A DNA stretch of 64,000 bases. Origin: Thermoplasmata archaeon (lineage in GTDB: Archaea; Thermoplasmatota; Thermoplasmata; Lutacidiplasmatales; UBA184). Positions 12,848-63,053 of the stretch are shown piece by piece (position 1 is the stretch's first letter; the number at the start of each line of letters is the position of its first letter). The notes beneath the pieces were generated by a model. It was not told the DNA's origin. It made no database searches and was given only the letters and a program-made list of their open reading frames with translations. The stretch covers positions 55,300 through 119,299 of the forward strand of contig JAKIWL010000003.1 in the NCBI GenBank assembly GCA_022750055.1, in the 5' to 3' direction. The translations under genes were made by a program, and so were the position numbers.

Positions 12848-12950
12848 GCTCCCGTAGTCTAGTGGTCAAGGATAGAGGCCTCTCGAGCCTCTGACGCGGG
12901 TTCAAAACCGCCGGGCGTTCGGCCTGGTGGGGAAACTCCCGCCGGGAGCA
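12848..12950 (+). tRNA. tRNA-Glu (anticodon CUC) with a ~30-nt non-canonical intron in the 3' strand of the T-arm (approx. 12910..12939)
   Basis: Acceptor GCTCCCG pairs with CGGGAGC (12943-12949), discriminator A. D-arm is GTCT/AGTGGTCAA/GGAT. Anticodon stem GAGGC/GCCTC with loop CTCTCGA gives CUC. T-stem GCGGG with loop TTCAAAA pairs with CC…CGC = CCCGC only after removal of GCCGGGCGTTCGGCCTGGTGGGGAAACTCC. The intron-less alternative (12841..12917) has a perfect acceptor but three T-stem mismatches and a poor D-arm. Confidence 0.55.
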
Positions 12951-17456: not shown

Positions 17457-18578
17457 ATGAGCGGGAGTCCCTCGTCCCTCGAGCGCGCCGCCGCCCGCAC
17501 CTTGGTCAAAAATTACCTCCACGTCCAGCCCGGCGAGAACGTGATCGTCGAATCCTGGACACACACGCTCCCCATGGCGTCGGCGATGGTCGACGAGGTC
17601 CGCCGAGTCGGCGCGGGTGCCTCACTGACATACGAGAACGATGACGCCTGGTGGCGCACGGTGGAACGGAAGCAGACCAAGCTCCTCGGCCGCTTGACCG
17701 ATCCGGATTGGGCCGCGCTCAAGGCGGCGGACGCCTACGTGATGTTCTGGGGCCCGGGGGACTCGGCCCGGGTAGAGGAGACCCCCGTAAAGAACATGGA
17801 CGAGACCGCGAACTGGTTCGACCGCTGGTACAGGGTCGCGCAATCGACCGGCTTGCGCGGGTTGCGGATGGACATGGGGTTCGTGACGGACACCCGGGCC
17901 CGTCAATGGGGGGTCCGCACGAAGACGTGGACCAACAGGCTACTAGAGGGATGCCTCGTCGACCCGAAGGAGTTGGCAGCGAACGGCAAACGCCTCTCCC
18001 GCTCATTCAGCGGGACGAAGAAGGTCCGGATCACCCACCCCAATGGGACCGACGTCGAGGTGGCCCTGGCCGGGGTGCCCGCCCGAATCTTCGAGGGTTA
18101 CCCCCACCCCAGGGACAAGGCCTACGGCCCGTACGACATGATGGCGAACGTCCCCGCGGGGAAGTTCCTCGTCGCGCTGGACGCCAAGACCGCCGAAGGG
18201 AGGATCGTTTCGACCCACCCCAGCTACGACCTCACCTGGTACCCATGGCAGAGGTATTCGGGAGGCACCTTCGAGTTCTCCGAGGGCAAGCTTGCCTCGT
18301 TCTCGTTCGAGCACGGAGAGGCCGAGTTCGCCAAGCACTACGCCCAGGGCACGCCGGGGAAGGAACGGACCGGCCAGCTCGAAATCGGACTTAACCCGAA
18401 GATCAAGGACGTCCCGTATGCGGACGACAAGGAGCGCGGCCGCATCCGCTTGAGGGTGGGGGGGAACGAGTATTCGGGGGGGAGCAACCCCTCGGACTTC
18501 ACCGGATGCATCTCCCTTGCGGGTTCGGAGATCATCGTCGACGGGACCTCGGTTATCCGCGCGGGAAAGATCCTGTAG
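17457..18578 (+). CDS. aminopeptidase, peptidase M29 (AmpS/aminopeptidase T-like) family
   Basis: 373 aa. The N-terminus LVKNYLHVQPGENVIVESW and the overall pattern are typical of M29 thermophilic metalloaminopeptidases. Assignment is by pattern memory only. Confidence 0.6.
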   Translation: MSGSPSSLERAAARTLVKNYLHVQPGENVIVESWTHTLPMASAMVDEVRRVGAGASLTYENDDAWWRTVERKQTKLLGRLTDPDWAALKAADAYVMFWGPGDSARVEETPVKNMDETANWFDRWYRVAQSTGLRGLRMDMGFVTDTRARQWGVRTKTWTNRLLEGCLVDPKELAANGKRLSRSFSGTKKVRITHPNGTDVEVALAGVPARIFEGYPHPRDKAYGPYDMMANVPAGKFLVALDAKTAEGRIVSTHPSYDLTWYPWQRYSGGTFEFSEGKLASFSFEHGEAEFAKHYAQGTPGKERTGQLEIGLNPKIKDVPYADDKERGRIRLRVGGNEYSGGSNPSDFTGCISLAGSEIIVDGTSVIRAGKIL

Positions 18579-18810
18579 GTCCGCGAGATTCGTCCGCGCG
18601 GCGGGGTCCTCCCCCGAGGTCCCCCGGCGCCGGCCGCCGTCGAAGAGGCAGGAACCCCAACGCGCCAGCACGTCCCAGGCTGCGGTGGAGAACGGACCCT
18701 CGATTCAGTCGCGACGTATCGTCGCAGATCATGAGCGGGAGCTACAGCGCACCAAGGCCCGGGTCGCTACTGCAGGCCTCGCGTTGCAGGGTTTAGAGAC
18801 ACCCTGCCCC

Positions 18811-23456: not shown

Positions 23457-24229
23457 GCGCGAGCGAAGCTCCCCTGACCGCCGGCCTGTCGGATCGCGCC
23501 GAGCGCGGCCTCGGTCGCTCGCTTCAGGACCTCTTCCGCTTGTTTGTACTGGGTCCCAGAGACTTGGACCCGGTAGCGGGGCGCGCCGACGTATTGGACC
23601 TTCACCGACGTCGGGTCGGTCTTCTCGGCGGCGGCCAAGGCCTCGCGGATGTGCCCGACCCCGTCGGGGGAAGGGTCCGTGAGTTCGAGGACGCCGCGAA
23701 CCGCGATATGAGGCGGGACCAGGTTTTCCTCGGCGACCTTCAAAAAGGCCGAGACCCAGGGAACCTTGCCGTTCTCCGTGGCGAAGCGCTTCGGGTCCGC
23801 CGAGGCGACCTCAAACGCGGCGAACAGGCTCCCGTACTTTTCCACGAGGGAAGCCCCAAAGAGAGCGTAGGCCCCCTCGACGTCGCTCTTGAGCTGCTCC
23901 GCGACGACGGCGACCAGCCGGTTGGCACGCTGCTCGTTCTTCCAACCCTGGACCTTCTCCCGGCGCTGGTGGTCGTTGATCCGTTTGAGCGACAGGTCGA
24001 CCTGGTTCTTGACCGGGTCGATCCGCAGGACCCGGGCGACGATCTTCTGCCCTTCGCGGATGTGATCCCGGATGTACTTGACCCACCCGGTGGCCACTTC
24101 GGACAGATGGATGAACGCCTCCCGCCCACCGAACTCGTCGAGGGTCACGAACGCGCCGAAGTTGCGGATCGAGGTGACGGTCCCAACGACGAGTTCGCCT
24201 TCCTCCGGCAGTTCGCCTCGGAGCGGCAT
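23453..24229 (-). CDS. eif2a: translation initiation factor 2 alpha subunit (aIF-2alpha)
   Basis: S1 domain GELVVGTVTSIRNFGAFVTLDEFGGREAFIHLSEVATGWVKYIRDHIREGQKIVARVLRIDP. Start set at the internal ATG 24229 (MPLRGELPEEGELVV). The upstream extension of the track ORF overlaps rps27e in another frame. Confidence 0.85.
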   Translation of the reverse strand: MPLRGELPEEGELVVGTVTSIRNFGAFVTLDEFGGREAFIHLSEVATGWVKYIRDHIREGQKIVARVLRIDPVKNQVDLSLKRINDHQRREKVQGWKNEQRANRLVAVVAEQLKSDVEGAYALFGASLVEKYGSLFAAFEVASADPKRFATENGKVPWVSAFLKVAEENLVPPHIAVRGVLELTDPSPDGVGHIREALAAAEKTDPTSVKVQYVGAPRYRVQVSGTQYKQAEEVLKRATEAALGAIRQAGGQGSFARA

Positions 24230-29118: not shown

Positions 29119-29885
29119 GAACGAGGACCCCGTACACTTCGCTCGCTCGATCGCCTCGTCTCCACCGCCGTTCCGGCGACGACCCGGAGAGCTACTGGAC
29201 CCAGGCGCTCGGGGCTCCGCCCTCCGTCTACGGGGAACGGATCGTCGAAGCGGCGATGGGAACACTTCGCCGGTGGGACCCGAACCGAAGCAAGCTCGGA
29301 GCCGCGATCACCAAGGGTTGGACGGAGCCGCTTCCCCAGCCCGGCGAGCGATGGCTCTACCTGGGTGCGGCCTCGGGCACGACGGCTTCCCACCTCGCCG
29401 ACCTGCTCGGCCCGGACGGCGCGCTCTATGCTGTCGAGAAGAGCATCCGACCCTTCGGCCGCCTGCTCGAGCTCGCCGGGCGGTATCCAAACCTAGCGCC
29501 CCTGCTCTCCGACGCGCGTCACTGGGAGGAGTTCGTGGGGATCGTTCCGCCGGTCGAGGGCCTCTACGTGGACATCGCCCAACCGGATCAGGTCGGGATC
29601 GCTCTGGACTGCGCGCGGCGGTTCCTGAAGGGAAGCGGCGCGCTCCTGCTCGCGCTGAAGACCTCGAGCATGGGAAGGGAGGCCGGCCCTCGGGGCCACC
29701 TCGACCGTTCCCTCGAGGCGATCGAGGACGGATTCGTGGTCGAAGCGACCCTCGCGCTCGACCCGTTCCATCGCAAACACTATCTCATCGGCGCCCGGGC
29801 GACGCGTCGACTGGTCCGCCCGGCGGAGCGGGCTGGCGGGGCGAGGCTCACGCGCCCCGCGACCCACGCTGCACGACCACGGTGA
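29115..29885 (+). CDS. flpA: fibrillarin-like rRNA/tRNA 2'-O-methyltransferase
   Basis: SVYGERIVEAAMGTLRRWDPNRSKLGAAI…WLYLGAASGTTASHLADLLGPDGALYAVEKSIR matches the fibrillarin SAM-binding region. Confidence 0.85.
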   Translation: MRTRTPYTSLARSPRLHRRSGDDPESYWTQALGAPPSVYGERIVEAAMGTLRRWDPNRSKLGAAITKGWTEPLPQPGERWLYLGAASGTTASHLADLLGPDGALYAVEKSIRPFGRLLELAGRYPNLAPLLSDARHWEEFVGIVPPVEGLYVDIAQPDQVGIALDCARRFLKGSGALLLALKTSSMGREAGPRGHLDRSLEAIEDGFVVEATLALDPFHRKHYLIGARATRRLVRPAERAGGARLTRPATHAARPR

Positions 29886-30963
29886 CGACGTCCTCGTCGG
29901 CCAGGACATGCTCCCGTCCGACCGTCTGACCGGGGAAGCGCGCACTCGGCCCCCAGATCTGCGCCGCCTTGAAAGAGCGGTCGAGCTCGCCGGGGAGCCG
30001 TATCAGCAGCTCGGCGACCCGCTGACCTCGCCGGAGGATGACCGGCTCTTCGCGGTCGGGCGGCTTGCCGGGGGGTTTCATGTAGATCCGGATGAACGCG
30101 AGCGCCCGGCCCACCCCGTCCACCAGCTCCCGCAGCCCGACCCGATCCCGCGCCGAGGTGAACAGGACCTCGAAGGGGCGAAGTTTGGCCGCCAGACTGA
30201 CGCGCTGACTCAGGGTCATGAGGTCGGCCTTGTTGACCGTCAGGATCGCCGGAATGTACACCCGATTCCCGGCGAGGGCGTCGATCAGGTCGTCCGGGGT
30301 GCTGTCCTCTCGAAAGACGATCTGTCCGTTGTGCAAACCGAACTCCCGGGCGATCGGGCTCGCGAGGCCCCCCGCGAGGTGGGTGAGCTTCACGGTGCTC
30401 GTGACAGTGAGCCCGCCCCGGTCGGCCCGGGTGATCACGATCTTAGGTGGCCGTCCATTGATCCGGACCCCGGCTCCCTCGAGCTCGTTGCGAAGCGCCC
30501 AGAAGTCGGTGTGGTCCGGGTCGATCATGAACAAGATCAGGTCGACCGAGCGGACGACGGAGAGGACCTCCCGGCCCCGCCCCCGGCCCTTCGCCGCGCC
30601 CGGTACCAGACCGGGCATGTCCAGGATCTGGATCGATGCGCCGCCCCAGCGCAGCATCCCCGGAATGATCGAGACCGTGGTGAAGTCGTAGGCCGCGGCC
30701 TCGCTTGCCGCGCCGGTCAAGGCCGTGAGGAGCGTCGATTTCCCGACCGACGGATACCCGACCAGCCCGACGGTCGCATGTCCGGATTTGCGGACGGCGT
30801 ACCCGAGGCCGCCTCCCTTGCCCTTGGCCCGAGTCTCCCGTTCGAGTCGCAGGACCGCAAGCTTCGCCTTCAGGCGCCCGATGTGATGCTGGGTCGCCTT
30901 GTTGTACTGGGTGTTTCGGATCTCGTCCTCGACCTCCGTGATCTGCTCTTCGAGCGAGGACAC
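29848..30963 (-). CDS. developmentally regulated GTP-binding protein (DRG/Rbg1-like Obg-family GTPase with TGS domain)
   Basis: N-terminal EIRNTQYNKATQHHIGRLKAKLAVLR. G1 motif GYPSVGKSTLLTALTG. C-terminal TGS. Confidence 0.8.
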   Translation of the reverse strand: MSSLEEQITEVEDEIRNTQYNKATQHHIGRLKAKLAVLRLERETRAKGKGGGLGYAVRKSGHATVGLVGYPSVGKSTLLTALTGAASEAAAYDFTTVSIIPGMLRWGGASIQILDMPGLVPGAAKGRGRGREVLSVVRSVDLILFMIDPDHTDFWALRNELEGAGVRINGRPPKIVITRADRGGLTVTSTVKLTHLAGGLASPIAREFGLHNGQIVFREDSTPDDLIDALAGNRVYIPAILTVNKADLMTLSQRVSLAAKLRPFEVLFTSARDRVGLRELVDGVGRALAFIRIYMKPPGKPPDREEPVILRRGQRVAELLIRLPGELDRSFKAAQIWGPSARFPGQTVGREHVLADEDVVTVVVQRGSRGA

Positions 30964-31187
30964 GGGAGAACTGACCCCGCCGAACGGACCGGGGAGCCTA
31001 CTTGACGATGGCGCGGTGCCAGTCGAGGTATCCGACGGAGGATTCCGACCTTCCGGGAGCTACGGCGCGCTCCAGCGCAGAAACGCTTTTAACGAGGGTC
31101 ACACTCGTTCAGTCGAATGCGACGGTCGTCGTTGGGTGGGTAACCCCCCCGCGGGTCCCCAACCTGGGTTTTTCGCCGGTCTTCTCG

Positions 31188-31730
31188 ATGGATGTCTTCG
31201 AGGCCATTCGCACATTCCGACCCTGCCGGCAGTTCCAGCCGCGGCCGGTGCCCACCGAGAAGCTCCGCGCCGTCCTCTCGGCCGCCCGGCTAGCACCCTC
31301 CCAAGGTAATCTTCAACCCTGGCGGTTCGTCGTGGTTCAGGACGACGAACGCAAGCGGCTCCTCGCCCAGGCCTGCGTCAAGGGGAAACCCGTCGCCGAG
31401 GCGCCGGTCGTCGTCGTCGCCTTCTCGGTCGAGGAGGACATCCCCGTCACCGTCGGCGGGTACATGTCGGCCTATCCCCTCGATGTGGCCGTGGCCGTGG
31501 GTCATCTCCAATTGGCGGCTACGTCGGAGGGTCTGGGCAGCGCGTGGATCGTCGACTTCCACGAGGAGAAGGTTCGCGCGGTCCTGAAGGTCCCCGAGGG
31601 AATCCACCCGATCGCGATCATCCCGATCGGCTACGCCGCCGACCAGAACGGCGGGGTTCGAGTCCCGGTCCCTGGCGAGGGCAGGAAGAGCCCGGACGAG
31701 ATCGTGGCCTACAACGAGTACGCCTGGTAG
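31188..31730 (+). CDS. nitroreductase family protein
   Basis: Start at the internal ATG 31188. MDVFEAIRTFRPCRQFQPRPVPTEKLRAVLSAARLAPSQGNLQPWRFVVVQDDE is the nitroreductase N-terminal signature. Confidence 0.7.
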   Translation: MDVFEAIRTFRPCRQFQPRPVPTEKLRAVLSAARLAPSQGNLQPWRFVVVQDDERKRLLAQACVKGKPVAEAPVVVVAFSVEEDIPVTVGGYMSAYPLDVAVAVGHLQLAATSEGLGSAWIVDFHEEKVRAVLKVPEGIHPIAIIPIGYAADQNGGVRVPVPGEGRKSPDEIVAYNEYAW

Positions 31731-31733
31731 GGC

Positions 31734-32303
31734 ATGCGCGTCACCTTCGTGACGTCGAATCCGAACAAATACCGCGAGGTTCGACGGATTCTCCGTCCGT
31801 TCGGGATCTCGGTGGACTGGCGTCGACTCGAACTGCCGGAACCTCAGGCGGACTCCCTGGCGGAGGTCGTTCGAGCGAAGCTCGCGCACATCCCTCGTCG
31901 ACGGGGGGTATTGCTCGTCGAGGACTCGGGCCTCTTCCTCAAGGGATTGGGGGGGTTTCCCGGGGTCTACGCGCGCTACGTTTACGGAACGATCGGACTT
32001 CCCGGAGTACTACGTCTCCTGAAGGGGAAGGGTCGGAGTGCGGTGTTCCGAACCGTGGCCGGGGTACGCCATGGACGCTCGGTCTGGCTGATCGAAGGAC
32101 GCTCTACCGGATCGATCGCCCTGACCGCCCGAGGGTCGAACGGATTCGGATACGACCCGGTCTTCGTCCCCACCGGGAGCGATCGGACCTACGCCCAGAT
32201 GACCGCCGTCGAGAAGGACCGGACCTCCCACCGCGCTCGAGCGATGCGCGGGGTCGGGCGGAAGCTCGTCAAGGCTCGGGCACGCCGAAACGGGTCGGCG
32301 TGA
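31734..32303 (+). CDS. non-canonical purine NTP pyrophosphatase (RdgB/HAM1 ITPase)
   Basis: MRVTFVTSNPNKYREV… and …GFGYDPVF, as in the HAM1 family. Confidence 0.8.
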   Translation: MRVTFVTSNPNKYREVRRILRPFGISVDWRRLELPEPQADSLAEVVRAKLAHIPRRRGVLLVEDSGLFLKGLGGFPGVYARYVYGTIGLPGVLRLLKGKGRSAVFRTVAGVRHGRSVWLIEGRSTGSIALTARGSNGFGYDPVFVPTGSDRTYAQMTAVEKDRTSHRARAMRGVGRKLVKARARRNGSA

Positions 32304-32402
32304 TCCGGGTCGAACGAAACGGGGTCCATCGGTGAACGGGCCGCTCCCGGGCGATCGGCCCGGTGAGCCGCGAAGTGGTTGGTCTGGGGGCGAACGGCCG
32401 CC

Positions 32403-34076
32403 CTAGTCCTCGCCGAAGTCGCCGCCGCCCATTCCGCCCATGCCACCCATGCCGCCCATCCCGCCGCCGCCTCCCCCGCCGCCCCCGGAGGGCGGTGGGC
32501 TTGACTTCGACGCGATGACGTCATCGATGCGCAGGATCATCACCGCAGCGTCGGTGGCCGACTCGATCGCCTGGCGACCCACGCGGATCGGCTCGATCAC
32601 GTGCAGGGTCAGCATGTCGTCGACCTTTCCGTCGCGGACGTTCACACCGGCGTTCCTCTTCCCACCCTTGTGCGACTTGCGTAGTTCGATGAGGATGTCG
32701 ATCGGGTCAAGACCTGCGTTCTCCGCGAGCGTCCTCGGCACGGTCTCGAGCGCCTCGGCGAAGCTCTCGAACGCGAGCTGCTCCCGCCCTCCGACCTTGG
32801 ACGCCTCGTCCCGCAGGGCCATCGCGATCTCGGAGGCCGCCGCGCCTCCGCCGATCACGTAACGGCCATCCTCGACGGCGACCGCCACGACGTTGAGTGC
32901 ATCTTCGAGCGAGCGCTCGATCTCGTCCAGTACGTGCTCGGTCCCACCGCGGATGAGGATCGAGACGGCCTTGGCCTTCTTCGCGCCGGTGACGAACGTG
33001 AGCGAGTCCTCCCCGATCTTGCGTTCCTCGACCAATCCAGCAGTTCCGACGTCCTCCGGGGTCAGTTCGCTCACCTTGGAGACGATGTTCGCGCCCGTCG
33101 CCTTGGCGAGCTTTTCCATGTCCGACTTCTTGACCCGCCGGACCGCGTAGATCCCCTCCTTTGCGAGGTAGTGTTGCGCGAGGTCGTCGATCCCCTTCTG
33201 GCAGAACACGGCGTTGGCTCCGCTCTTCTTCACCTGGTCGACCATGCGGCGGAGCATGCTCTCCTCCTCCTGGAGGAAGGCGTTCAACTGCGACGGGTCG
33301 TTGATCTCGATCTTCGCGTCGATCTCGGTCTTCTTGATCTCGAGAGCGGCATCAAGGAGGGCGATCTTCGGCTCGGCGACCCGGGTGGGCATCCCGGAAT
33401 GGACCTTCTCCTTGTCAACGATGACCCCTTCGATCAGCTGGGTGTCGGTCATGGCGCCGCCCTGCTTCTTGACGATCTGAATGTTGTCGAGGTCCACATA
33501 GGTGGAGGCCTCGTTCTTCTCTGCCACGGCGGTGACAGCCTTCACGGCGATCTCCCCTAGGGCATCGCGGTTGTACGAGACCGACTTCGAGGCCATCGAG
33601 GTGACGGCGATCCGCTGGAGCGTCTCGTAGTCGTCGGTCTTCAGCGAGGTGGAGATCGAGTTCAGGACCTCGAGAGCCTTCTTGGACGCGAGCCGGTACC
33701 CTTGCGAGATGATCGTCGGGTGGATGTTCTGCTCGATGAGGCCCTCGGCCCGCTTGAGGAGCTCCCCGGCGAGGATCACGGCGGTCGTGGTGCCATCTCC
33801 CGCCTCCTGGTCCTGGGTCTTGGCGACCTCGACGAGCATCTTCGCCGCGGGATGCTCGACGTCCATCTCCTTTAGGATCGTGACCCCGTCGTTCGTCACG
33901 ACCACGTCACCCATCGAGTCCACGAGCATCTTGTCGAGGCCCCGCGGGCCCAGGGTCGAACGGACCGCATCGGCGATCGCCTTTGCGGCCGCAATATTGT
34001 TCGAGAGCGCGCCGCGTCCCTTCTCTCGCCTCGTCCCTTCGCGCAGCACCAGAATCGGCGTTTGACCAGACATCAT
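32403..34076 (-). CDS. ths: thermosome subunit (group II chaperonin, Cpn60/TCP-1 family)
   Basis: [26 protein letters not shown]…[16 protein letters not shown] and a C-terminal [12 protein letters not shown] tail. Confidence 0.95.
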
Positions 34077-34325
34077 GGTTGTTTTCCTAGCCCGAGATTA
34101 CTCTCGGTCGTCAGCACAAGTAGATTAGCACTCGTATTTAAAGTAGAGCTATCGGTCCTCTGGAGTCCTGGAATCGTTTCCGCCTCCCGGCGGATCGCCG
34201 AACCACTGGCTCGCCGATCTCCCTGACCGTGCTTGGCAGGCCGGGGTCGGAGGAACGTGGGGCCCAGAGGGGTCAGGGTCCAGAGCCGGTGCCGCCCTTG
34301 CCGAAAGTGTGGGGGGGGTCCGGTC

Positions 34326-35129
34326 TCATCGACCCAACCGTCTCTGTCTCGTCTGGAACGACCGGATCGCCCGGAGAAAATCGATCTTTGTGAGCCCGGG
34401 CCACATGACGTCGGCGAAATAGAGCTCCGCGTAGGCCGACTGCCACAGAAGGAAGTTGGAGATCCGTTCCTCGCCGCTCGTACGGAACACGAGGTCGGGA
34501 TCGGGCATGTCAGCGGTGTAGAGGCGTCCCGAAACGGTCCCGGAATCGATCGCTTCGGGAGAGATCCGGCCTGCCGCGACGTCCCGGGCGATCGCTCGGA
34601 TGGCCTCGACGATCTCCTCCCTCCCCCCGTAGGCGATGGCGATGTTGTACCGGTAGTCGTCATAGGCCTCGGTGGCGGCCTCCGCCTTGCGGATCGCCTC
34701 CTGGACCTCGGGCGGCAGCATCGAGAGGTTCCCGATCGTCTTGACCCGTATTCGGTACCGGTGCACCCGTTCGTCAACGGCGATCTTCTCGAAGCTCTCC
34801 CGGAACAGCGCCATGAGCGTGCGGAGCTCCTCCTCGGATCGGCCGAGGTTCTCCGTCGAGAGTGCGTAGACGGTTAGGATCCGAATTCCGATCTCGAGGC
34901 ACCAGTCGAGGAGCTCCTCGAGCTTGTCCTTGCCCCTCAGGTGGCCCTCCTCGACCAGGAGGCCGTGCCCGACGGCGAAGCGTCGGTTCCCGTCCATGAT
35001 GATGGCGACATGGCGAGGGATCGGTTCGGCCCGGACCCGGGAGAGCAGAGTTTTCTCGGTGGCGTCCCGGAAGGCGCCGGCCACCGCCTGGGAGAGGTAC
35101 TTGGGAGGAGGCTGATCCCGGGCCGGCAC
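34326..35129 (-). CDS. uppS: cis-prenyltransferase (undecaprenyl/tritrans,polycis-polyprenyl diphosphate synthase)
   Basis: HVAIIMDGNRRFA and RTSGEERISNFLLWQSAYAELYF motifs. Confidence 0.85.
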   Translation of the reverse strand: MPARDQPPPKYLSQAVAGAFRDATEKTLLSRVRAEPIPRHVAIIMDGNRRFAVGHGLLVEEGHLRGKDKLEELLDWCLEIGIRILTVYALSTENLGRSEEELRTLMALFRESFEKIAVDERVHRYRIRVKTIGNLSMLPPEVQEAIRKAEAATEAYDDYRYNIAIAYGGREEIVEAIRAIARDVAAGRISPEAIDSGTVSGRLYTADMPDPDLVFRTSGEERISNFLLWQSAYAELYFADVMWPGLTKIDFLRAIRSFQTRQRRLGR

Positions 35130-35216
35130 GGCCCCGGCGCGAGTCCGGGCCGGGGATTAAGCTATGCAGTCGTTCGCTGACGAGCGAGGGGCCGACGCCT
35201 CGCCCGGGGCGAGGAG

Positions 35217-35322
35217 CGCCCTGGTCGGGATTTCCGGCACCGGAGGGTGCGCCTCCGGGGACGTTCGAACCCGAGTCCCAGGCTCGACAGACCTAGATCC
35301 TAGACCACTAGACTACCAGGGC
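35217..35322 (-). tRNA. tRNA-Asp (anticodon GUC) with a ~33-nt non-canonical intron between T-loop and T-stem 3' strand (plus coordinates ~35230..35262)
   Basis: The minus strand reads GCCCTGG-TA-GTCT-AGTGGTCTA-GGAT-C-TAGGT-CTGTCGA-GCCTG-GGAC-TCGGG-TTCGAAC-[GTCCCCGGAGGCGCACCCTCCGGTGCCGGAAAT]-CCCGA-CCAGGGC-G. Acceptor and T-stems are perfect only with the bracketed segment removed. The D-arm is nearly identical to that of tRNA-Glu. Confidence 0.5.
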
Positions 35323-35719
35323 ACTCGGACGGCGGTAGGTTCCCCCTCTCTTGAACCTTGCGAAGGAGGACGCAGTGGGGACCGAAATCCGGTCGGCCCC
35401 ATCGATCGGAAGCGCCCGGGTCCGACCTCTCGAGGGTAGGACTCGACGGTCCGCGCTCCCGCTCTTCCAGTGGAGCTTTTCGTTTTATCTAGGGGAACCG
35501 CACCAAACCGGTAACCCCAGGGGTAGGAATATGGGGGCAACGTTGGCGTGGTTTACGACGGTAGTGCTGATCTATGCGGGGGTCCTCCTGCTGGTCCATA
35601 TGGGAGTGGACACCGGAGGGATCTTGGGAACTTTCCTGACGGGCGCGGAACATTCTCTCGCCCACCCCGTCTCGTTCCCGTAGCGGTACTCGGTTCCAAG
35701 GCCCCCGGCCGAGGTCGCC

Positions 35720-36712
35720 CTAGGTCGTCCGACCCATCTGGCGGATCGTTCGGACTCGACTGGGAGGGATCACCCCGAGCGGGGTGACGAATCCGGTGAC
35801 GTAGCGAGACGGGGTCACATCGAACGCCGGGTTGCGGACCCCGCTCCGTCCGGGAGCGAGGCGCCGCGAGCCGAGGGAGCGGACCTCCTCAGCGCCCCGC
35901 TCTTCGACCGGGATGCCCGCCCCCGTCGGCATGCGCGGGTCGAAGGTGCTGAACGGCGCAGCCACGTAGAATGGGATCCCGTTCTCGTGCGCCACGACGG
36001 CCTTCTCGTACGTACCTACCTTGTTGGCCACATCGCCATTCCGCGCGATCCGATCCGCCCCGACGATGACCGCGTCGACGTCCCCCCGGAGCATGAAGTA
36101 ACCGGCGGCGTTGTCGACGATCACCGCGTGAGGAATGTGCTCCTGGGCGAGCTCCCAGGCCGTAAGCCGGGATCCCTGGAGCAAGGGCCGTGTCTCGTCG
36201 ACCCAGACGAAGAGGTCCACCCCGTGGTCGTGCGCGACGCGGATCGGCGCGAGTGCGGTGCCCCATTCGACCGTGGCGAGAGCGCCTGCGTTGCAATGAG
36301 TAAGGACGTTCGTACGCTTCGAGAACAGGGGGGCGCCCACCTCCCCGATCGCCTGGCACTCTGCGACGATGCGCTCCCGGTACCAGTGGGCCGATTCCAC
36401 GGGATCCTCCCCCGCCGTCCAGGCCGACCGCACCGCCTCGATCCCGACGAAGAGGTCGTGGGCCGTTGGGCGGGTCGATGCGAGGAGCTTGGCGGCCCGC
36501 GTGGGGGTCCAACCGCGTTGCTGGGAGGCGATCGCCATGCCGTACGCGGCGGCGACCCCGATGGAAGGCGCCCCGCGTACCACCATCGTGCGGATCGCTT
36601 CTGCGACGCCCTCGACCTTCCGGTAGGTCCTCACGACCCGAGCGTTGGGCAGGCGCCGCTGGTCGATCAGATGCAGCCCGAGGCGATCGTACCAGAGTGC
36701 GCGTACCCGCAT
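35720..36712 (-). CDS. mtnA: eIF-2B alpha/beta/delta-like protein: methylthioribose-1-phosphate isomerase / ribose-1,5-bisphosphate isomerase family
   Basis: Start at the internal ATG 36712 (MRVRALWYDRLGLHLIDQRRLP, typical of MtnA/e2b2). 331 aa. The upstream part of the track ORF is low-complexity. Confidence 0.75.
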   Translation of the reverse strand: MRVRALWYDRLGLHLIDQRRLPNARVVRTYRKVEGVAEAIRTMVVRGAPSIGVAAAYGMAIASQQRGWTPTRAAKLLASTRPTAHDLFVGIEAVRSAWTAGEDPVESAHWYRERIVAECQAIGEVGAPLFSKRTNVLTHCNAGALATVEWGTALAPIRVAHDHGVDLFVWVDETRPLLQGSRLTAWELAQEHIPHAVIVDNAAGYFMLRGDVDAVIVGADRIARNGDVANKVGTYEKAVVAHENGIPFYVAAPFSTFDPRMPTGAGIPVEERGAEEVRSLGSRRLAPGRSGVRNPAFDVTPSRYVTGFVTPLGVIPPSRVRTIRQMGRTT

Positions 36713-36719
36713 GGCACCC

Positions 36720-37742
36720 CTACGGCTCGAACGTATGCAGGAGGTCGCGCCAATCGGCGGGCACGGTCTTCGGGGTCCGCAGGGCTTCCGCGAAGGGGAC
36801 GCCCACGACCTCACTGCCTCGCAGGACAGCGACCTGTCCGAACTTTCCCTCGACAGCGAGGTCGACCGCCTTGGCGCCAAGCCGGGTCGCGAGGATCCGG
36901 TCGAACAGGGTCGGAGAGCCCCCGCGCTGGATGTGCCCGATGGCGGCGCTGCGACTCTCAACCCCGGTCGCGGCTTCGATACGCCTTGCGACCTCCTCGC
37001 CGACGCGACGTTCCTTCAACAGCTCGTGATCGAAATCGTCCTGGTTCCCGGCTGTCCCTTTTCGCGGCCCCAGCTCGATCCCCTCCGAGGCGACCACCAG
37101 GGCGAACCCGCGATCCGCGATCGCCTTTTTCACGTGCCCCATCAGTGCATCCTCATCGAATGGTTCCTCGGGAATCAGCGTCGCGTCGGCGGCCCCGGCG
37201 AGCCCTGTTGCGAGCGCGACCCAACCGGCGTTCCGCCCCATCACCTCGAGGACGAGCGCTCGATGGTGGCTCGCGGCCGTGTCCCGCAATCGCCCCAGCG
37301 CGTCCATCGAGACCGAGGCGGCCGAATCAAATCCGAAGGTCCAGTCGGTTGCTCCTACGTCGTTGTCCATCGTCTTCGGCACCCCTACGACCTTGCCCCC
37401 GAGCCGATGGAGCGCCTGGGCGGCGCTCAGCGTGTCGTCCCCGCCGATCGCCACGAGGGCCTCCACGCCCAACCGGTGGAGCGTGTCGGTGACGCGCGCG
37501 GACCCCTCCGGGGTCTTGAAGGGATTCGTCCGGGTCGTCCCGAGTACGGTCCCGCCCCGCAGGATGCCGTCGGCGAGGTCCTCCGGAACGAGGTCGCGGG
37601 TCTGGCCCTCGAGGACTCCCTTCCAGCCGTCGAGGAACCCGATCGTGCGGTGACCTCCTCGGTGGGCTCGGAAGACCACCGCGCGGACGGCGGCGTTGAG
37701 GCCGGGGCAGTCCCCCCCGCCGGTAAGGACGCCGAACTTCAC
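36720..37742 (-). CDS. pfkA: 6-phosphofructokinase (PfkA family)
   Basis: (V)KFGVLTGGGDCPGLNAAVR, GGDDTLSAAQ, MGRNAGW. GTG start at 37742 overlaps the stop of the upstream prolidase gene (GTGA). Confidence 0.8.
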   Translation of the reverse strand: MKFGVLTGGGDCPGLNAAVRAVVFRAHRGGHRTIGFLDGWKGVLEGQTRDLVPEDLADGILRGGTVLGTTRTNPFKTPEGSARVTDTLHRLGVEALVAIGGDDTLSAAQALHRLGGKVVGVPKTMDNDVGATDWTFGFDSAASVSMDALGRLRDTAASHHRALVLEVMGRNAGWVALATGLAGAADATLIPEEPFDEDALMGHVKKAIADRGFALVVASEGIELGPRKGTAGNQDDFDHELLKERRVGEEVARRIEAATGVESRSAAIGHIQRGGSPTLFDRILATRLGAKAVDLAVEGKFGQVAVLRGSEVVGVPFAEALRTPKTVPADWRDLLHTFEP

Positions 37743-38848
37743 GCCGGAACCTCGATGTACCCGCGCGGGGCCGTGGTCAGGAACTCGTACCCGCCTCGGG
37801 TGACCACAATATCGTCCTCGATGCGGACCCCGCCCTTGCCCGGGAGATAGATCCCCGGTTCCACGGTGATCGCCATGCCCTCTTCGAGCGGCTCGTCTAC
37901 CAGTTGATTCATTCCGAACCCATCGTGGACGGCGAGGCCGATGGAGTGGCCGAGACCATGGATGAACCGCCCCTTCCACGGGGAGGCGTCGATCACGCGC
38001 TGCGCCGCGAGGTGGGCGTCCTTGGCCAGGAGTCCGGGCCGGATGACGCTTAGAGCGGCCTCTTGCGCCTCGAGGACCTTCTCGTGGACGCCCTTGAGTT
38101 CCGCGTCGGCCGGTCCGAATCGGAACGACCGGGTGATGTCGCTCGCGTAGCGCTGGTACAGCGCGCCGAAGTCGCACACGATGCTCGTGCCGGGGGTGAG
38201 GCGACGATTCTGGGGCGCATAATGCGGCTCCGCTCCCATAGCGCCGAACGCAGTGATCGTCGAAAAGCTGCGACCCGAGGCGCCCCCGCGAACCATCCGG
38301 TACTCCATCTCAGCCGCGAGATCGAGTTCGGTCATCCCCGCCTTCAGGAGCGAGGGGATCTCGACCGCAACGGCCGAAGCGATCTCCGCCGCCCGGCGCA
38401 GCCGCGCGATCTCCTCGGCGTCCTTGATCATGCGGGCGGAGCGGATCGAATCGCTCGCATCGACCCATCGCGCCTTCGGAAGGGCCTTCTCCAGCGACAG
38501 GAAGCTGTCGTGCGTCAGCTCTCGGTAGTTCAGGGCCACGGTCGCATCCGAACGGATGAGCCTCGACAGAATCTGGTCGCGCTCGGGCCGGGTGGTAGGA
38601 ACCTCGATCGTAACCGTCGGGTCCCTCTTGGCAGCCTGCCGGGCGCTCTCCTCTTCGAGGAGCGAGCTGAGGATCGTTAGGCGGCCGTCGGGGAAGGCCA
38701 CGGCGCACGAGCCCTCGAACATGCCGCTGGGCACATCGAACACGTAGACGAAACTCTGGTCGAGGTGAGGCTCCGTGCTGTTCACGAGAAGCATCACGTC
38801 CGCAGGGGAGCGCAGGTGTTCGAAGATCTTCTGGACCCGAGCTTTCAT
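37739..38848 (-). CDS. Xaa-Pro aminopeptidase / prolidase (peptidase M24B)
   Basis: Start at the internal ATG 38848 (MKARVQKIFEHL). The C-terminal pita-bread domain shows HGLGHSIGLAVHD and VEPGIYLPGKGGVRIEDDIVVT. 369 aa. Confidence 0.8.
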   Translation of the reverse strand: MKARVQKIFEHLRSPADVMLLVNSTEPHLDQSFVYVFDVPSGMFEGSCAVAFPDGRLTILSSLLEEESARQAAKRDPTVTIEVPTTRPERDQILSRLIRSDATVALNYRELTHDSFLSLEKALPKARWVDASDSIRSARMIKDAEEIARLRRAAEIASAVAVEIPSLLKAGMTELDLAAEMEYRMVRGGASGRSFSTITAFGAMGAEPHYAPQNRRLTPGTSIVCDFGALYQRYASDITRSFRFGPADAELKGVHEKVLEAQEAALSVIRPGLLAKDAHLAAQRVIDASPWKGRFIHGLGHSIGLAVHDGFGMNQLVDEPLEEGMAITVEPGIYLPGKGGVRIEDDIVVTRGGYEFLTTAPRGYIEVPA

Positions 38849-39073
38849 CGGCGCCCTTACCGGGTGAGCGGCTTCAAGCTTTCCGAGCGTTGGGATCGGT
38901 CGGCGAAGACGGAGCGCCCGCTGCGTGAAGGCACGGCGGGGCCCCCACTCACTCCAGCCCAGCCGGCCCGAAAAGCCCTGCGCTGCGACGACGAACCTGA
39001 AGGTCCATCCACTTGACTGCGGGCGACACGAGCTCTTATACGGCGCTGCCCCGGAAGGTACGGGGGGAGCCAC

Positions 39074-39910
39074 GTGACCTCGTCCACGGCCGTCAAGAAG
39101 ACTGTCGTGGTCCTTGGGATGCACCGGTCGGGTACCTCCCTCGTCGCAGGGATCCTGCACGCCCTCGGCGTGAACATGGGGGCCCGCGCCGAGGGTGAGG
39201 CGTGGGTTGGGCGGCATTGGTCCAATCCGACCGGCCATTTTGAGAATGCGGAGTTCGTCTCCCTCGACTATCGCATCCTCGGTGGAGATGCGACCGGGAT
39301 CCGCGGTCCCCCCCGCTGGGAGGACGTAGCTGCCCGCTCGGCACAGTTCGAGGCGGAGGCGAGGGCGCTGATCCGCCGCCACGAGGCAGAGATGTGGGGA
39401 TGGAAGGACCCGTGGACGGTGCTCACGCTCGAGGTCTTCCTCCCACTCCTTCGGTCCCCCTACTTCGTCATGGTCCGTCGCCCGAAGGAGGAGGTGCTCG
39501 CCTCGCTCCGAAAGCGCTCTACCTCCCAGGACTCGGACATTGCGGAGCTGTTCGACGTGTACGAGCAGCGCTTGGCCGAGCTCAAGGAGCGACTGCGGTC
39601 GTTCCCCGTGATCGAGGTCGATTATCCCACCCTTCTTCGGGAGCCCAGCCCAACCGTGGGCCGCCTGATCGAGTTCTTGGGACTCAGGCCAACCCGGGAG
39701 GAACTGGACCGCGCTCTCGGCATGGTCTTGGGCGGTGCGGAGCTCCGCCGGGAGAGTCAGCGGATGGCGATCCGGGGGGTCTTCGGCTTTCCGCGGTGGG
39801 TGGGTTGGGTCTTGAAGCGGGACCTAAGAAACAATCCCGATGTCGTGGCCACGGACCTCTTCTCCTCGGTCCCCAAAGAGCTTTTTCAGATGTTCCGGAC
39901 CCTTCTGTAG
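39074..39910 (+). CDS. sulfotransferase family protein
   Basis: The N-terminal 5'-PSB-type loop VVVLGMHRSGTSLVAGIL is typical of PAPS-dependent sulfotransferases. Context includes sat and cysC. Confidence 0.6.
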   Translation: MTSSTAVKKTVVVLGMHRSGTSLVAGILHALGVNMGARAEGEAWVGRHWSNPTGHFENAEFVSLDYRILGGDATGIRGPPRWEDVAARSAQFEAEARALIRRHEAEMWGWKDPWTVLTLEVFLPLLRSPYFVMVRRPKEEVLASLRKRSTSQDSDIAELFDVYEQRLAELKERLRSFPVIEVDYPTLLREPSPTVGRLIEFLGLRPTREELDRALGMVLGGAELRRESQRMAIRGVFGFPRWVGWVLKRDLRNNPDVVATDLFSSVPKELFQMFRTLL

Positions 39911-49418: not shown

Positions 49419-50231
49419 GTGACGGAGGGGGAACCCGGTGAGCTTGACGTTCTCTTCCGGATTGCGTACGCCGTTCACCGCGCGGTCAACCAGTCCCGTC
49501 GGTCCCCGAGCCGCGGGACGATCGTCGGAATGGGTGCGTTCGGAAGTCCCACCGAGGAGATCGACCGGGCCGCCGAGGCCCAGGTGTTCTCCTCCCTCGA
49601 GGCGGAGGGGGTCGATTGGGACGTCCTCAGCGAGGAGGCCGGCCTCGTTCGGCGCGGAGGGCGGCGCACGCTCGTGCTCGACCCGGTTGACGGAAGCCAC
49701 AACGCGCTGCGCGGCGTGCCGTTCGCCACGGTCTCCCTTGCCCTCGGTTCGAAGAACCTCGCAGGGGTCGACATCGGCGTGGTCCACGACCTCTACCGGG
49801 GCCACACCTTCTGGGGGGTGCGGGGGGAGGGAGCGTTCCGGGACGGCCATCGGATCCACCCCCGCGCGTGGGACCCTCGAACCGAGCTCTTCCTTCTCAA
49901 CCTCGGCCGCCACGCGTCTCCGCGGTCCGCCACCTGGGCCGCGAAGGGCCGGCGGATCCGATCGCTGGGCTGCGCGTCGTATGAGATGGCCCTGATCGCC
50001 GAGGGGGCGGCCGACGCCTACTTCTTCGAGAACGACCCACCGACGAGCAACCTGCGGGTCACCGACATCGCTGCAGGATACCGGATCCTGCTCGAGGCCG
50101 GCGGCGGGGCCACCGACGCGCTCGGGAAGCCGGTGGACCGGGTGCCCCTGCATCTCGACGAGCGGACGAGCGTCTTCGCCTGGGGGGACGCGACGTTCGC
50201 CTCGAAGGCCCATTCGGAGGGATACCTCTGA
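49419..50231 (+). CDS. inositol monophosphatase / fructose-1,6-bisphosphatase family (IMPase/FBPase; possible NADP phosphatase)
   Basis: GTG start. Motifs DPVDGS and EE…, and WDPRTELFLLN. 270 aa. Confidence 0.8.
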   Translation: MTEGEPGELDVLFRIAYAVHRAVNQSRRSPSRGTIVGMGAFGSPTEEIDRAAEAQVFSSLEAEGVDWDVLSEEAGLVRRGGRRTLVLDPVDGSHNALRGVPFATVSLALGSKNLAGVDIGVVHDLYRGHTFWGVRGEGAFRDGHRIHPRAWDPRTELFLLNLGRHASPRSATWAAKGRRIRSLGCASYEMALIAEGAADAYFFENDPPTSNLRVTDIAAGYRILLEAGGGATDALGKPVDRVPLHLDERTSVFAWGDATFASKAHSEGYL

Positions 50232-62828: not shown

Positions 62829-63053
62829 ATGGCGATCGAGGACGAGCTCTCCGGGAATGCGGTAAAGGTGTACAAGGCGATGAAGGAGCTCGGCTATCTG
62901 AACGAAGAGAAGATGGGTACCGCCGAACGGATCACCCAATCGGCAAAGCTTCCCAAGACGATGGTCATGAACGCCCTGCAGGACCTTCAGACGAAGGGAT
63001 TTGCCCGCCGGAAGGTGCGCGAGAAGGCGGCGGGCTACTTCCTAACGAAGTAA
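62829..63053 (+). CDS. small winged-helix protein (74 aa), hypothetical
   Basis: AVKVYKAMKELGYLNEEKMGTAERITQSAKLPKTMVMNALQDLQTKGFARRK has the wHTH pattern. Confidence 0.4.
   Translation: MAIEDELSGNAVKVYKAMKELGYLNEEKMGTAERITQSAKLPKTMVMNALQDLQTKGFARRKVREKAAGYFLTK

Follow-up and report, generated by a model that had tools for sequence, protein, structure and literature searches.

How can a tRNA gene with an interrupted T-arm encode a normal tRNA, and which enzyme would remove an insertion from such a place? This question is raised by a locus on the minus strand of a 64,000-nt stretch of Thermoplasmata DNA (contig JAKIWL010000003.1, positions 55,300 to 119,299; the whole stretch is called the window in the following), whose guanine-plus-cytosine (GC) content is about 68%. 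The locus is very probably a tRNA-Asp(GUC) gene from a high-GC soil lineage of Thermoplasmata, interrupted by a 33-nt archaeal protein-spliced intron between tRNA positions 59 and 60. An initial annotation had already proposed a minus-strand tRNA-Asp(GUC) gene with a T-arm intron of about 33 nt, and this is borne out by the fact that deletion of 33 nt results in a sequence that ARAGORN recognizes as tRNA-Asp(gtc). The site itself, which had been given as about 60/61 at the T-loop/T-stem junction, was one base off: according to the bulge-helix-bulge (BHB) geometry, A59 is the last base ahead of the intron and T60 the first one behind it, and the intron therefore interrupts the T-loop at 59/60.

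The interrupted tRNA-Asp gene and its T-arm motif

The locus comprises the following features (slashes mark predicted cuts):

35217..35322, minus strand: complete pre-tRNA-Asp(GUC) gene, 106 nt, CCA not encoded, discriminator G73
35264..35322, minus strand: 5' exon, tRNA positions 1-59 (acceptor 5' strand, D-arm, anticodon arm with GUC, 4-nt variable loop, T-stem 5' strand, TTCGAA)
35231..35263, minus strand: 33-nt intron CGTCCCCGGAGGCGCACCCTCCGGTGCCGGAAA between positions 59 and 60, placed by deletion products and BHB geometry
35217..35230, minus strand: 3' exon (T60, CCCGA as T-stem 3' strand, CCAGGGC as acceptor 3' strand, discriminator G)
35266..35269, minus strand: 5' strand of the central BHB helix, T54 T55 C56 G57, with 4/4 pairs in 25/25 tRNA-Asp genes
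35265-35263, minus strand: bulge 1, A58 A59 / C, next after T54-G57, predicted cut after A59
35233..35236, minus strand: 3' strand of the central BHB helix, intron CGGA, with the invariant intron columns C87 and G88
35232-35230, minus strand: bulge 2, A A / T60, next after the intron CGGA, predicted cut before T60
35240..35258, minus strand: intron hairpin CCGGAGG-CGCAC-CCTCCGG, the distal helix h', from minimum free energy (MFE) and constrained folds and from covariation
35346..35361, minus strand: promoter-like box GCAAGGTTCAAGAGAG, a putative B recognition element (BRE)/TATA box about 24-39 nt upstream of the gene

Read on the minus strand, the gene begins with GCCCTGG-TA-GTCT-AGTGGTCTA-GGAT-C-TAGGT-CTGTCGA-GCCTG-GGAC-TCGGG-TTCGAA, continues with the intron CGTCCCCGGAGGCGCACCCTCCGGTGCCGGAAA, and ends with T-CCCGA-CCAGGGC-G. 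The acceptor strands GCCCTGG and CCAGGGC and the anticodon loop CTGTCGA (GUC), on which the first reading of the gene was based, are present, and so is the T-stem TCGGG/CCCGA, whose halves are kept apart by TTCGAA, the 33 nt and a T. The D-arm GTCT-AGTGGTCTA-GGAT was thought to share its design with a tRNA-Glu gene of the same window, and it indeed differs from the D-arm of that gene, at 12848, in only one loop base. TAGGT and GCCTG form the anticodon stem. Features of tRNA-Asp identity are present, namely GUC in the 7-nt loop CUGUCGA with U33, a class I cloverleaf, a 4-nt variable loop, and G73.

General tRNA finders do not see this gene. In the 64-kb window, neither ARAGORN nor Rfam at its gathering threshold calls the tRNA-Asp locus, and the sole tRNA that they report is the tRNA-Glu at 12848. 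In E-value mode, the Rfam score of the Asp locus is 22.7 bits, short of the cut-off of 29, and intron bases are mistaken for the 3' half. When all possible stretches of 25-39 nt were deleted from the precursor and the products were run through ARAGORN, a full-length tRNA-Asp(gtc) was called after deletion, and removal of 33 nt gave a 73-nt tRNA with the T-loop TTCGAAT. The predicted junction in the spliced tRNA reads GGGUUCGAA/UCCCGA in RNA, i.e. ...CUCGGGUUCGAA/UCCCGACCAGGGCG.

Could the junction lie elsewhere, at 60/61, 57/58 or 58/59? Due to repeated bases, 33-nt deletions after position 57, 58 or 59 give one and the same product, and a deletion that starts after position 60, as in the earlier placement, still results in an acceptable T-loop, TTCGAAC. 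Such other junctions are nevertheless very unlikely, as the geometry of two 3-nt bulges and a 4-bp helix (3-4-3) leads to cuts after A59 and before T60 in 25/25 tRNA-Asp and in 29/29 tRNA-Glu genes, and a cut at 60/61 would lie outside the bulges. Moreover, intron-less orthologues of the tRNA-Glu gene agree with 59/60 for tRNA-Glu, as their T-loop TTCAAAT can be obtained from that junction only. The tRNA-Asp intron is thus situated at 59/60, inside the T-loop, which is the T-arm equivalent of the canonical position 37/38.

In the T-arm of the precursor, the T-stem (49-53/61-65, 5 bp) is followed by bulge 2, the central helix, bulge 1, a G-C and a U-G pair, and the 7-bp hairpin. The central helix consists of the pairs U54-A, U55-G, C56-G and G57-C with the intron CGGA, and G61-C86 and U62-G85 connect the intron hairpin to it. 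The perfect 7-bp hairpin CCGGAGG/CCTCCGG, which the initial annotation had noticed in the insert, is present and corresponds to the distal helix h'. The motif is a strict BHB with two flanking helices (hBHBh', 3-4-3), with the hairpin as its h'; none of the signs of a relaxed BHB (HBh', hBH, BHL), whose removal depends on (alpha-beta)2 or epsilon2 EndA, such as a lost or disrupted bulge or one that deviates from 3 nt, was found in tRNA-Asp, where both bulges have 3 nt and the helix has 4 bp. In archaeal BHB motifs, the scissile phosphate follows the second bulge nucleotide (B2) (PMC5829648).

Signs of other kinds of inserts were not detected. With respect to group I/II introns, the insert is a simple hairpin of 33 nt without a match to any Rfam intron family. 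Self-splicing introns of these groups have cores of at least about 200 nt, usually reside in the anticodon loop, and are usually bacterial or organellar. With respect to a box C/D guide RNA, as encoded by archaeal tRNA-Trp introns, CGTCCCCGGAGGCGCACCCTCCGGTGCCGGAAA contains neither a C box RUGAUGA nor a D box CUGA, and the intron is also too short.

Conservation of the introns in tRNA-Asp and tRNA-Glu

The shared D-arm pattern was used to scan one genome per GTDB species, which gave at least 120 loci; these loci, the window, and a syntenic JGI contig (L002) form the comparison set, and the following gene counts refer to the matches listed. The set includes at least 25 tRNA-Asp(GTC) genes (window and L002 included) with inserts of 28-33 nt at the same site, and at least 29 tRNA-Glu(CTC) genes (window included) with inserts of 28-32 nt at the very site of the Asp inserts. 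On L002, the same tRNA-Asp gene lies upstream of undecaprenyl-diphosphate synthase and carries at the same site a 33-nt intron of different sequence.

Nearly all intron carriers are metagenome-assembled genomes (MAGs) labelled Thermoplasmata; one is labelled Candidatus Lutacidiplasmatales, and a few are labelled Thermoplasmatales, Methanobacteriota or "bacterium". The last label belongs to L025 (DAIDCO010000070.1), which is titled 'bacterium isolate clean3188' and yet has an archaeal tRNA-Asp with a 33-nt BHB intron, so that this bin is probably mislabelled or mixed. The thermosome gene of the window, 1.1 kb from the tRNA-Asp gene, has its closest relatives, with 85-95% identity, in entries named Thermoplasmata archaeon. 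AcS/SubAcS soil MAGs are among the scan matches (JAKIVS, JAKIVW, JAKIVX, JAKIWD, JAKIWH, JAKIWS, JAKIWX), and because the accession series, the soil origin and a GC content of about 69% all fit, they would be the genomes from which the Lutacidiplasmatales were described (PMC9287336). The window, whose accession prefix lies within this series, probably belongs to the same order.

The 25 tRNA-Asp genes were aligned (alignment A1). Their exons vary in five columns only, all of them in the 5' exon, and the 3' exon is invariant in 25/25 genes. In the intron, by comparison, the only invariant columns are C87 and G88, which pair with G57 and C56 in the central helix. Both bulges have 3 nt and all four central pairs form in 25/25 genes, and the first bulge base is A in 25/25 (bulge 1) and 24/25 (bulge 2). 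Altogether, 94.5% of the cells are paired (100% in the central helix), versus 28-60% when the partners are slid by 1-3 columns; changes on both sides occur in 8/9 distal intron pairs, and the observed covariation score was reached by 0/500 shuffles. That the arrangement is not due to chance, which the initial annotation had concluded from two genes, can be stated with more weight now: as the same architecture recurs in at least 24 other tRNA-Asp genes with covarying intron helices, chance is excluded. The two G-U pairs of the anticodon stem, which had been named as a possible objection to the tRNA-Asp identity, turned out to be a regular trait of these genes, with U27-G43 in 25/25 and U31-G39 in 20/25 of them (C-G in the other 5). 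Positions 26 and 44 of tRNA-Asp (A1 columns 27 and 45) are a covarying tertiary pair, with C26/G44 in 15 genes and G26/C44 in 10.

The tRNA-Glu genes were aligned in the same manner (alignment A2), and covariation and pairing in these 29 genes behave as in A1, except for the fourth central pair. Here A57 faces an intron base with which it forms an A-U pair in 6 genes, whereas 22/29 genes, the gene of the window included, have an A-G mismatch at this place. The mismatch is the only feature that might demand more of the enzyme than the textbook BHB motif.

Upstream of the genes, at a distance of about 25-38 nt, there are conserved A/T-rich boxes with the consensus GCAAGGTTCATAGC for tRNA-Asp and CGAAAGGCTCAAAGAG for tRNA-Glu. 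These boxes resemble archaeal BRE/TATA promoters and may thus speak in favour of expression.

Is the gene, then, a pseudogene, i.e. a tRNA-Asp that lost its function through an insertion of 33 nt that always stays in place? The failure of ARAGORN and Rfam to recognize the unspliced sequence would agree with this. However, the exons are invariant and the insert is found at one site in at least 25 genes from different assemblies, the BHB is preserved via compensatory changes, the promoter boxes are conserved, and in the MAG AcS1-45 the only tRNA-Asp and tRNA-Glu(CUC) genes that match the D-arm pattern (among the matches listed) are both intron-bearing. Invariant exons beside a freely varying insert would not be expected from an inactivated gene, and we therefore regard a pseudogene as highly improbable. 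An artefact of MAG assembly or binning comes to mind as the window is derived from a metagenome-assembled genome, but this has practically no probability, since this structure is shared by dozens of assemblies that are independent of each other and come from JGI, ENA and NCBI data, on contigs of 0.7-1.8 Mb and also in the 2.18-Mb chromosome record OY970259.1 (L069).

The sister gene, of which the initial annotation had said that its intron has the same location, indeed has a 30-nt intron at this site:

12848..12950, plus strand: pre-tRNA-Glu(CUC), 103 nt, with exon 1 at 12848-12906, the 30-nt intron at 12907-12936 (59/60), and exon 2 at 12937-12950

ARAGORN and Rfam (44.1 bits) miscall this gene as 12848-12920, whereby the first intron bases ACCGCCGGGCGTT are used, with mismatches, as a false T-stem and acceptor 3' half, and the 3' end is miscalled likewise in many orthologues. 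Three Thermoplasmata MAGs among the matches listed have a tRNA-Glu(CTC) gene without intron, with the T-loop that results from splicing at 59/60:

L054, 1284-1356: intron-less tRNA-Glu(CTC)
L080, 1987-2059: intron-less tRNA-Glu(CTC)
L102, 7161-7233: intron-less tRNA-Glu(CTC)

The genes of L054 and L102 are identical to the predicted spliced tRNA-Glu of the window and reach 68.2 bits with Rfam, versus 44.1 bits for the unspliced call; the gene of L080 differs in one base of the anticodon stem. In view of these alleles, the tRNA-Glu intron is polymorphic within the wider clade, i.e. it was lost or never gained in some members.

Beyond Asp and Glu, no genuine T-loop-interrupted tRNA was found in the window and 54 related loci by T-stem pairing and ARAGORN runs on spliced candidates. 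A candidate tRNA-Pro(CGG) in L090 was a false positive in coding-like sequence. The D-arm scan also led to a tRNA-Gln(CTG) in a Woesearchaeota MAG (L085, WJJV01000086.1, minus strand, start index 389 on the reverse complement), which has a 38-nt T-loop insert (TTCGAA/ACGGG...GCATC/TCCGTG), and many other DPANN tRNA-Gln matches of the scan have long canonical anticodon-loop introns.

The neighbours of the tRNA-Asp gene (window 29848-39382) are archaeal housekeeping genes, which encode an Obg/DRG-type GTPase with TGS domain, the thermosome, undecaprenyl-diphosphate synthase, an IF-2B family protein and an M24 peptidase; in L001, fibrillarin is seen just past this set of neighbours. Three further Rfam matches in the window stayed below the gathering score and were set aside: the Hac1/Xbp1 bZIP intron model at 50038-50103 on the minus strand (27.3 bits, inside a 360-aa open reading frame), taken as chance, as well as CRISPR-DR20 at 23599-23632 on the plus strand (26.2 bits) and the box C/D small RNA sR44 at 62876-62928 on the plus strand (21.6 bits), both probably chance.

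The splicing endonuclease and the proposed pathway

Which endonuclease would remove such introns? The initial annotation had suggested inspecting the type of the splicing endonuclease EndA, and this was done on close relatives. A tBLASTn search with the Methanocaldococcus jannaschii enzyme in the first 125 loci matched only two DPANN genes. In two DPANN MAGs, one of a Woesearchaeota and one of a Nanoarchaeota, the tRNA-Gln gene that matches the D-arm pattern has a single-unit EndA homologue at a distance of a few hundred bases (L121, 343-855; L078, about 828-1337). Fragments of the Thermoplasma acidophilum EndA, recovered from PDB alignments, were the starting point for queries; a word-indexed protein search with its 68-aa catalytic fragment gave no candidates. 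A metagenome scan with an EndA alignment gave 80 loci, mostly of low GC content, which included a full-length Thermoplasma-like EndA. The two high-GC loci among them (L194, L199) encode single-unit EndA proteins of 173-177 aa and could not be linked to the Thermoplasmata clade. A homologue search with the Thermoplasma-like EndA led to high-GC two-unit proteins, and when cluster representatives were searched with a profile, about 278 strong relatives with two units were found.

Among the ten best matches that were looked up, the only large 90%-identity cluster has 46 members of 354 aa, annotated as tRNA-intron lyase [Thermoplasmata archaeon]. The contigs that encode them have a GC content of about 70% and share the gene order M16-M16-UbiA-PcrB-DUF2070-M28 with L033, which has an intron-bearing tRNA-Glu. 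Looking up the neighbouring M16 peptidase led to three loci of 21 kb each (L226-L228), which belong to contigs of 270-444 kb. Each of these loci contains the 354-aa EndA (1313-2377) and, at a distance of about 16 kb, a tRNA-Glu(CTC) gene (18520-18621) whose T-loop intron has 29 nt. In L226, the tRNA-Glu sits elsewhere on the locus than the synteny with L033 had predicted. In the Thermoplasmata cluster, the EndA gene lies between a phosphoribosyltransferase gene and shikimate-pathway genes, unlike the two-unit EndA genes of two other archaeal contigs (63% and 73% GC), which directly follow purS-purL-purQ (L206, 10001-11041; L208, 2483-3526).

The 354-aa protein has two N-terminal-plus-catalytic units (Pfam PF02778 and PF01974, each twice) and is colinear with the alpha'2 enzyme of Archaeoglobus fulgidus across both units. 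According to the alignment, the Tyr/His/Lys triad is retained in the C-terminal unit, and the N-terminal unit, read by eye, is without the Tyr. At the site of the crenarchaeal specificity loop, the protein has no loop insertion (YGSRVGDRLELSL versus YGSEKGDLVTLSL). By its two units, its colinearity with the A. fulgidus enzyme and its lack of a loop insertion, the EndA of the close relatives, taken as that of the lineage, is of alpha'2 type without specificity loop. Enzymes of the alpha'2 type have been assigned to cluster II Euryarchaeota (PMC5829648).

On this basis, a pathway can be proposed in which cleavage, ligation, the RtcB-type ligase and the EndA of the window's own genome are presumed. 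The precursor would be transcribed from the upstream promoter, and its T-stem (49-53/61-65) would stack on the 4-bp helix of T54-G57 with the intron CGGA. This helix would be flanked on opposite strands by the 3-nt bulges A58 A59/C and A A/U60, with the distal intron hairpin beyond. A homodimeric alpha'2 EndA would recognize the strict T-arm BHB and cut after the second nucleotide of each bulge, i.e. after A59 and before U60. An RtcB-type RNA ligase would then join A59 to U60, resulting in the T-loop UUCGAAU and a normal 73-nt tRNA, to which CCA would be added, because CCA is not encoded. The strictness of the motif agrees with the enzyme type, as alpha4 and alpha'2 enzymes require strict 3-4-3 motifs (PMC3239211), and the homodimeric EndA of Ferroplasma (Thermoplasmatales) cleaves minimal BHB substrates, with no need for a mature tRNA domain (PMC8707768).

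Alternatively, cleavage outside the anticodon loop could require an (alpha-beta)2 or epsilon2 EndA of broad specificity, with a specificity loop, or even an enzyme of another kind. In reviews, non-canonical introns are associated with (alpha-beta)2 and epsilon2 enzymes (PMC5829648, PMC3239211, PMC4090602), and the A-G mismatch as fourth central pair in 22/29 tRNA-Glu genes could be taken in the same sense. In tRNA-Asp, however, the motif is strict 3-4-3, a loop-less two-unit alpha'2 EndA is encoded on the same contigs as the intron-bearing tRNA-Glu, and archaeal EndA needs no mature tRNA domain to recognize the BHB (PMC8707768), which makes the need for a broad-specificity enzyme most unlikely.

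Some points weigh against splicing of a BHB intron by an alpha'2 enzyme as proposed here. A tblastn search with M. jannaschii EndA did not find the endonuclease in the window. In the unconstrained MFE fold, computed for the whole precursor and for the T-arm with the intron, the T-stem and the intron hairpin are kept, while the 4-bp central helix opens into an internal loop. The helix beside bulge 1 in the intron of the window has 2 bp only (G-C, U-G), after which a small internal loop follows. Finally, as the orthologues were gathered by a D-arm pattern, the invariance of the D-arm is in part by construction. Because the MFE fold lacks the 4-bp helix, the BHB was tested by explicit geometry, constrained folding and covariation. 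On the supporting side, the BHB-constrained fold lies above the MFE by 2.9 kcal/mol on average for tRNA-Asp and by 2.7 for tRNA-Glu, and the opening of this helix is the sole difference between the two folds.

Implications and comparison with known tRNA introns

The introns described here are new instances of a known mechanism in a new lineage, and the mechanism itself is unchanged. Conservation of 59/60 introns in an alpha'2 euryarchaeal lineage is mildly unexpected. According to reviews, Euryarchaeota with alpha4 or alpha'2 EndA have introns at the canonical position 37/38 only (PMC4090602), and non-canonical introns have been linked to (alpha-beta)2 and epsilon2 enzymes (PMC5829648). In contrast to this widely repeated rule, dozens of species of a Thermoplasmata clade have retained strict-BHB introns at 59/60 in two of their tRNAs. 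The conserved introns fit an older notion from biochemistry, according to which recognition by the archaeal enzyme depends on the BHB and not on its position.

There is also a practical side. General finders skip the tRNA-Asp and misplace the 3' end of the tRNA-Glu, which applies to the window as well as to many relatives, and the genomes of an abundant soil lineage can therefore seem to be without tRNA-Asp unless an intron-aware archaeal mode is used. Non-canonical archaeal introns are modelled by tRNAscan-SE 2.0 (PMC8450103), and the type genome of the Lutacidiplasmatales was reported to have tRNAs for all 20 amino acids with version 2.0.5 in archaeal mode, in a paper in which introns are not mentioned (PMC9287336). 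With about 54 drifting orthologous introns and three intron-less alleles among the matches listed, the clade offers a natural series for the study of gain, loss and constraint of tRNA introns.

Could these T-loop introns be more than neutral passengers? An order-wide and stable presence in both acidic-amino-acid tRNAs, combined with a loop-less alpha'2 enzyme as the sole EndA of the lineage, is a doubtful though conceivable scenario. If it were true, the position of archaeal introns would not be limited by the endonuclease type, given a strict BHB, and the alpha'2 enzyme of the lineage would tolerate a central helix of 3 bp and an A-G mismatch, as found in most of the tRNA-Glu genes. Selection may then keep the introns, as they could disrupt the segment from the T-arm to the 3' end that serves integrases as attachment site; alternatively, the introns may impose an order on the modification and folding of the T-loop.

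How do these introns relate to known systems? Introns at 59/60 are present in many Thermoproteales tRNAs. The site is an established non-canonical one, found for example in tRNA-Cys and tRNA-Pro of ARMAN-2 (PMC3239211). The ARMAN-2 introns share with those described here the same T-loop site, the short length, the BHB at the exon-intron boundaries and the presumed removal by EndA and ligase, and the ARMAN-2 tRNA-Pro(GGG) intron also has a strict hBHBh' at 59/60. The tRNA-Cys intron of ARMAN-2, in contrast, has 13 nt and a relaxed hBH, whereas the motif is strict here and the intron has 28-33 nt. Another difference is the host, as ARMAN-2 and the crenarchaeal hosts have epsilon2 or (alpha-beta)2 enzymes, whereas the introns of this study belong to Thermoplasmata (cluster II Euryarchaeota) with a loop-less alpha'2 enzyme. 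Moreover, known 59/60 introns are scattered, whereas at least 50 assemblies of this study have the intron fixed in one and the same pair of tRNAs, Asp and Glu(CUC).

In their architecture, the T-loop introns resemble canonical 37/38 introns, which likewise have a 5-bp stem, a 4-bp helix of the first four loop bases with the 3' part of the intron, and two 3-nt bulges that are cut after the second base. The T-arm mirrors the anticodon arm in this respect, with a 5-bp stem, a 7-nt loop and the cut between loop bases 6 and 7. Unlike in case of the 37/38 introns, the motif is located in the T-arm, and its central helix is built from the universally conserved T54-Psi55-C56-R57. As these bases are occupied by the helix, the tertiary fold of the T-loop with the D-loop is impossible before splicing. 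The 20b/21 intron of Methanopyrus kandleri pre-tRNA-Glu(UUC) is similar in that it also interrupts a euryarchaeal tRNA-Glu outside the anticodon loop in a host whose EndA has no specificity loop (PMC5829648). That intron, however, resides in the D-loop, has a relaxed HBh' motif and is cut inefficiently by an (alpha-beta)2 enzyme (PMC5829648), whereas the introns described here reside in the T-loop, have a strict or near-strict motif and would be removed by an enzyme of the alpha'2 type.

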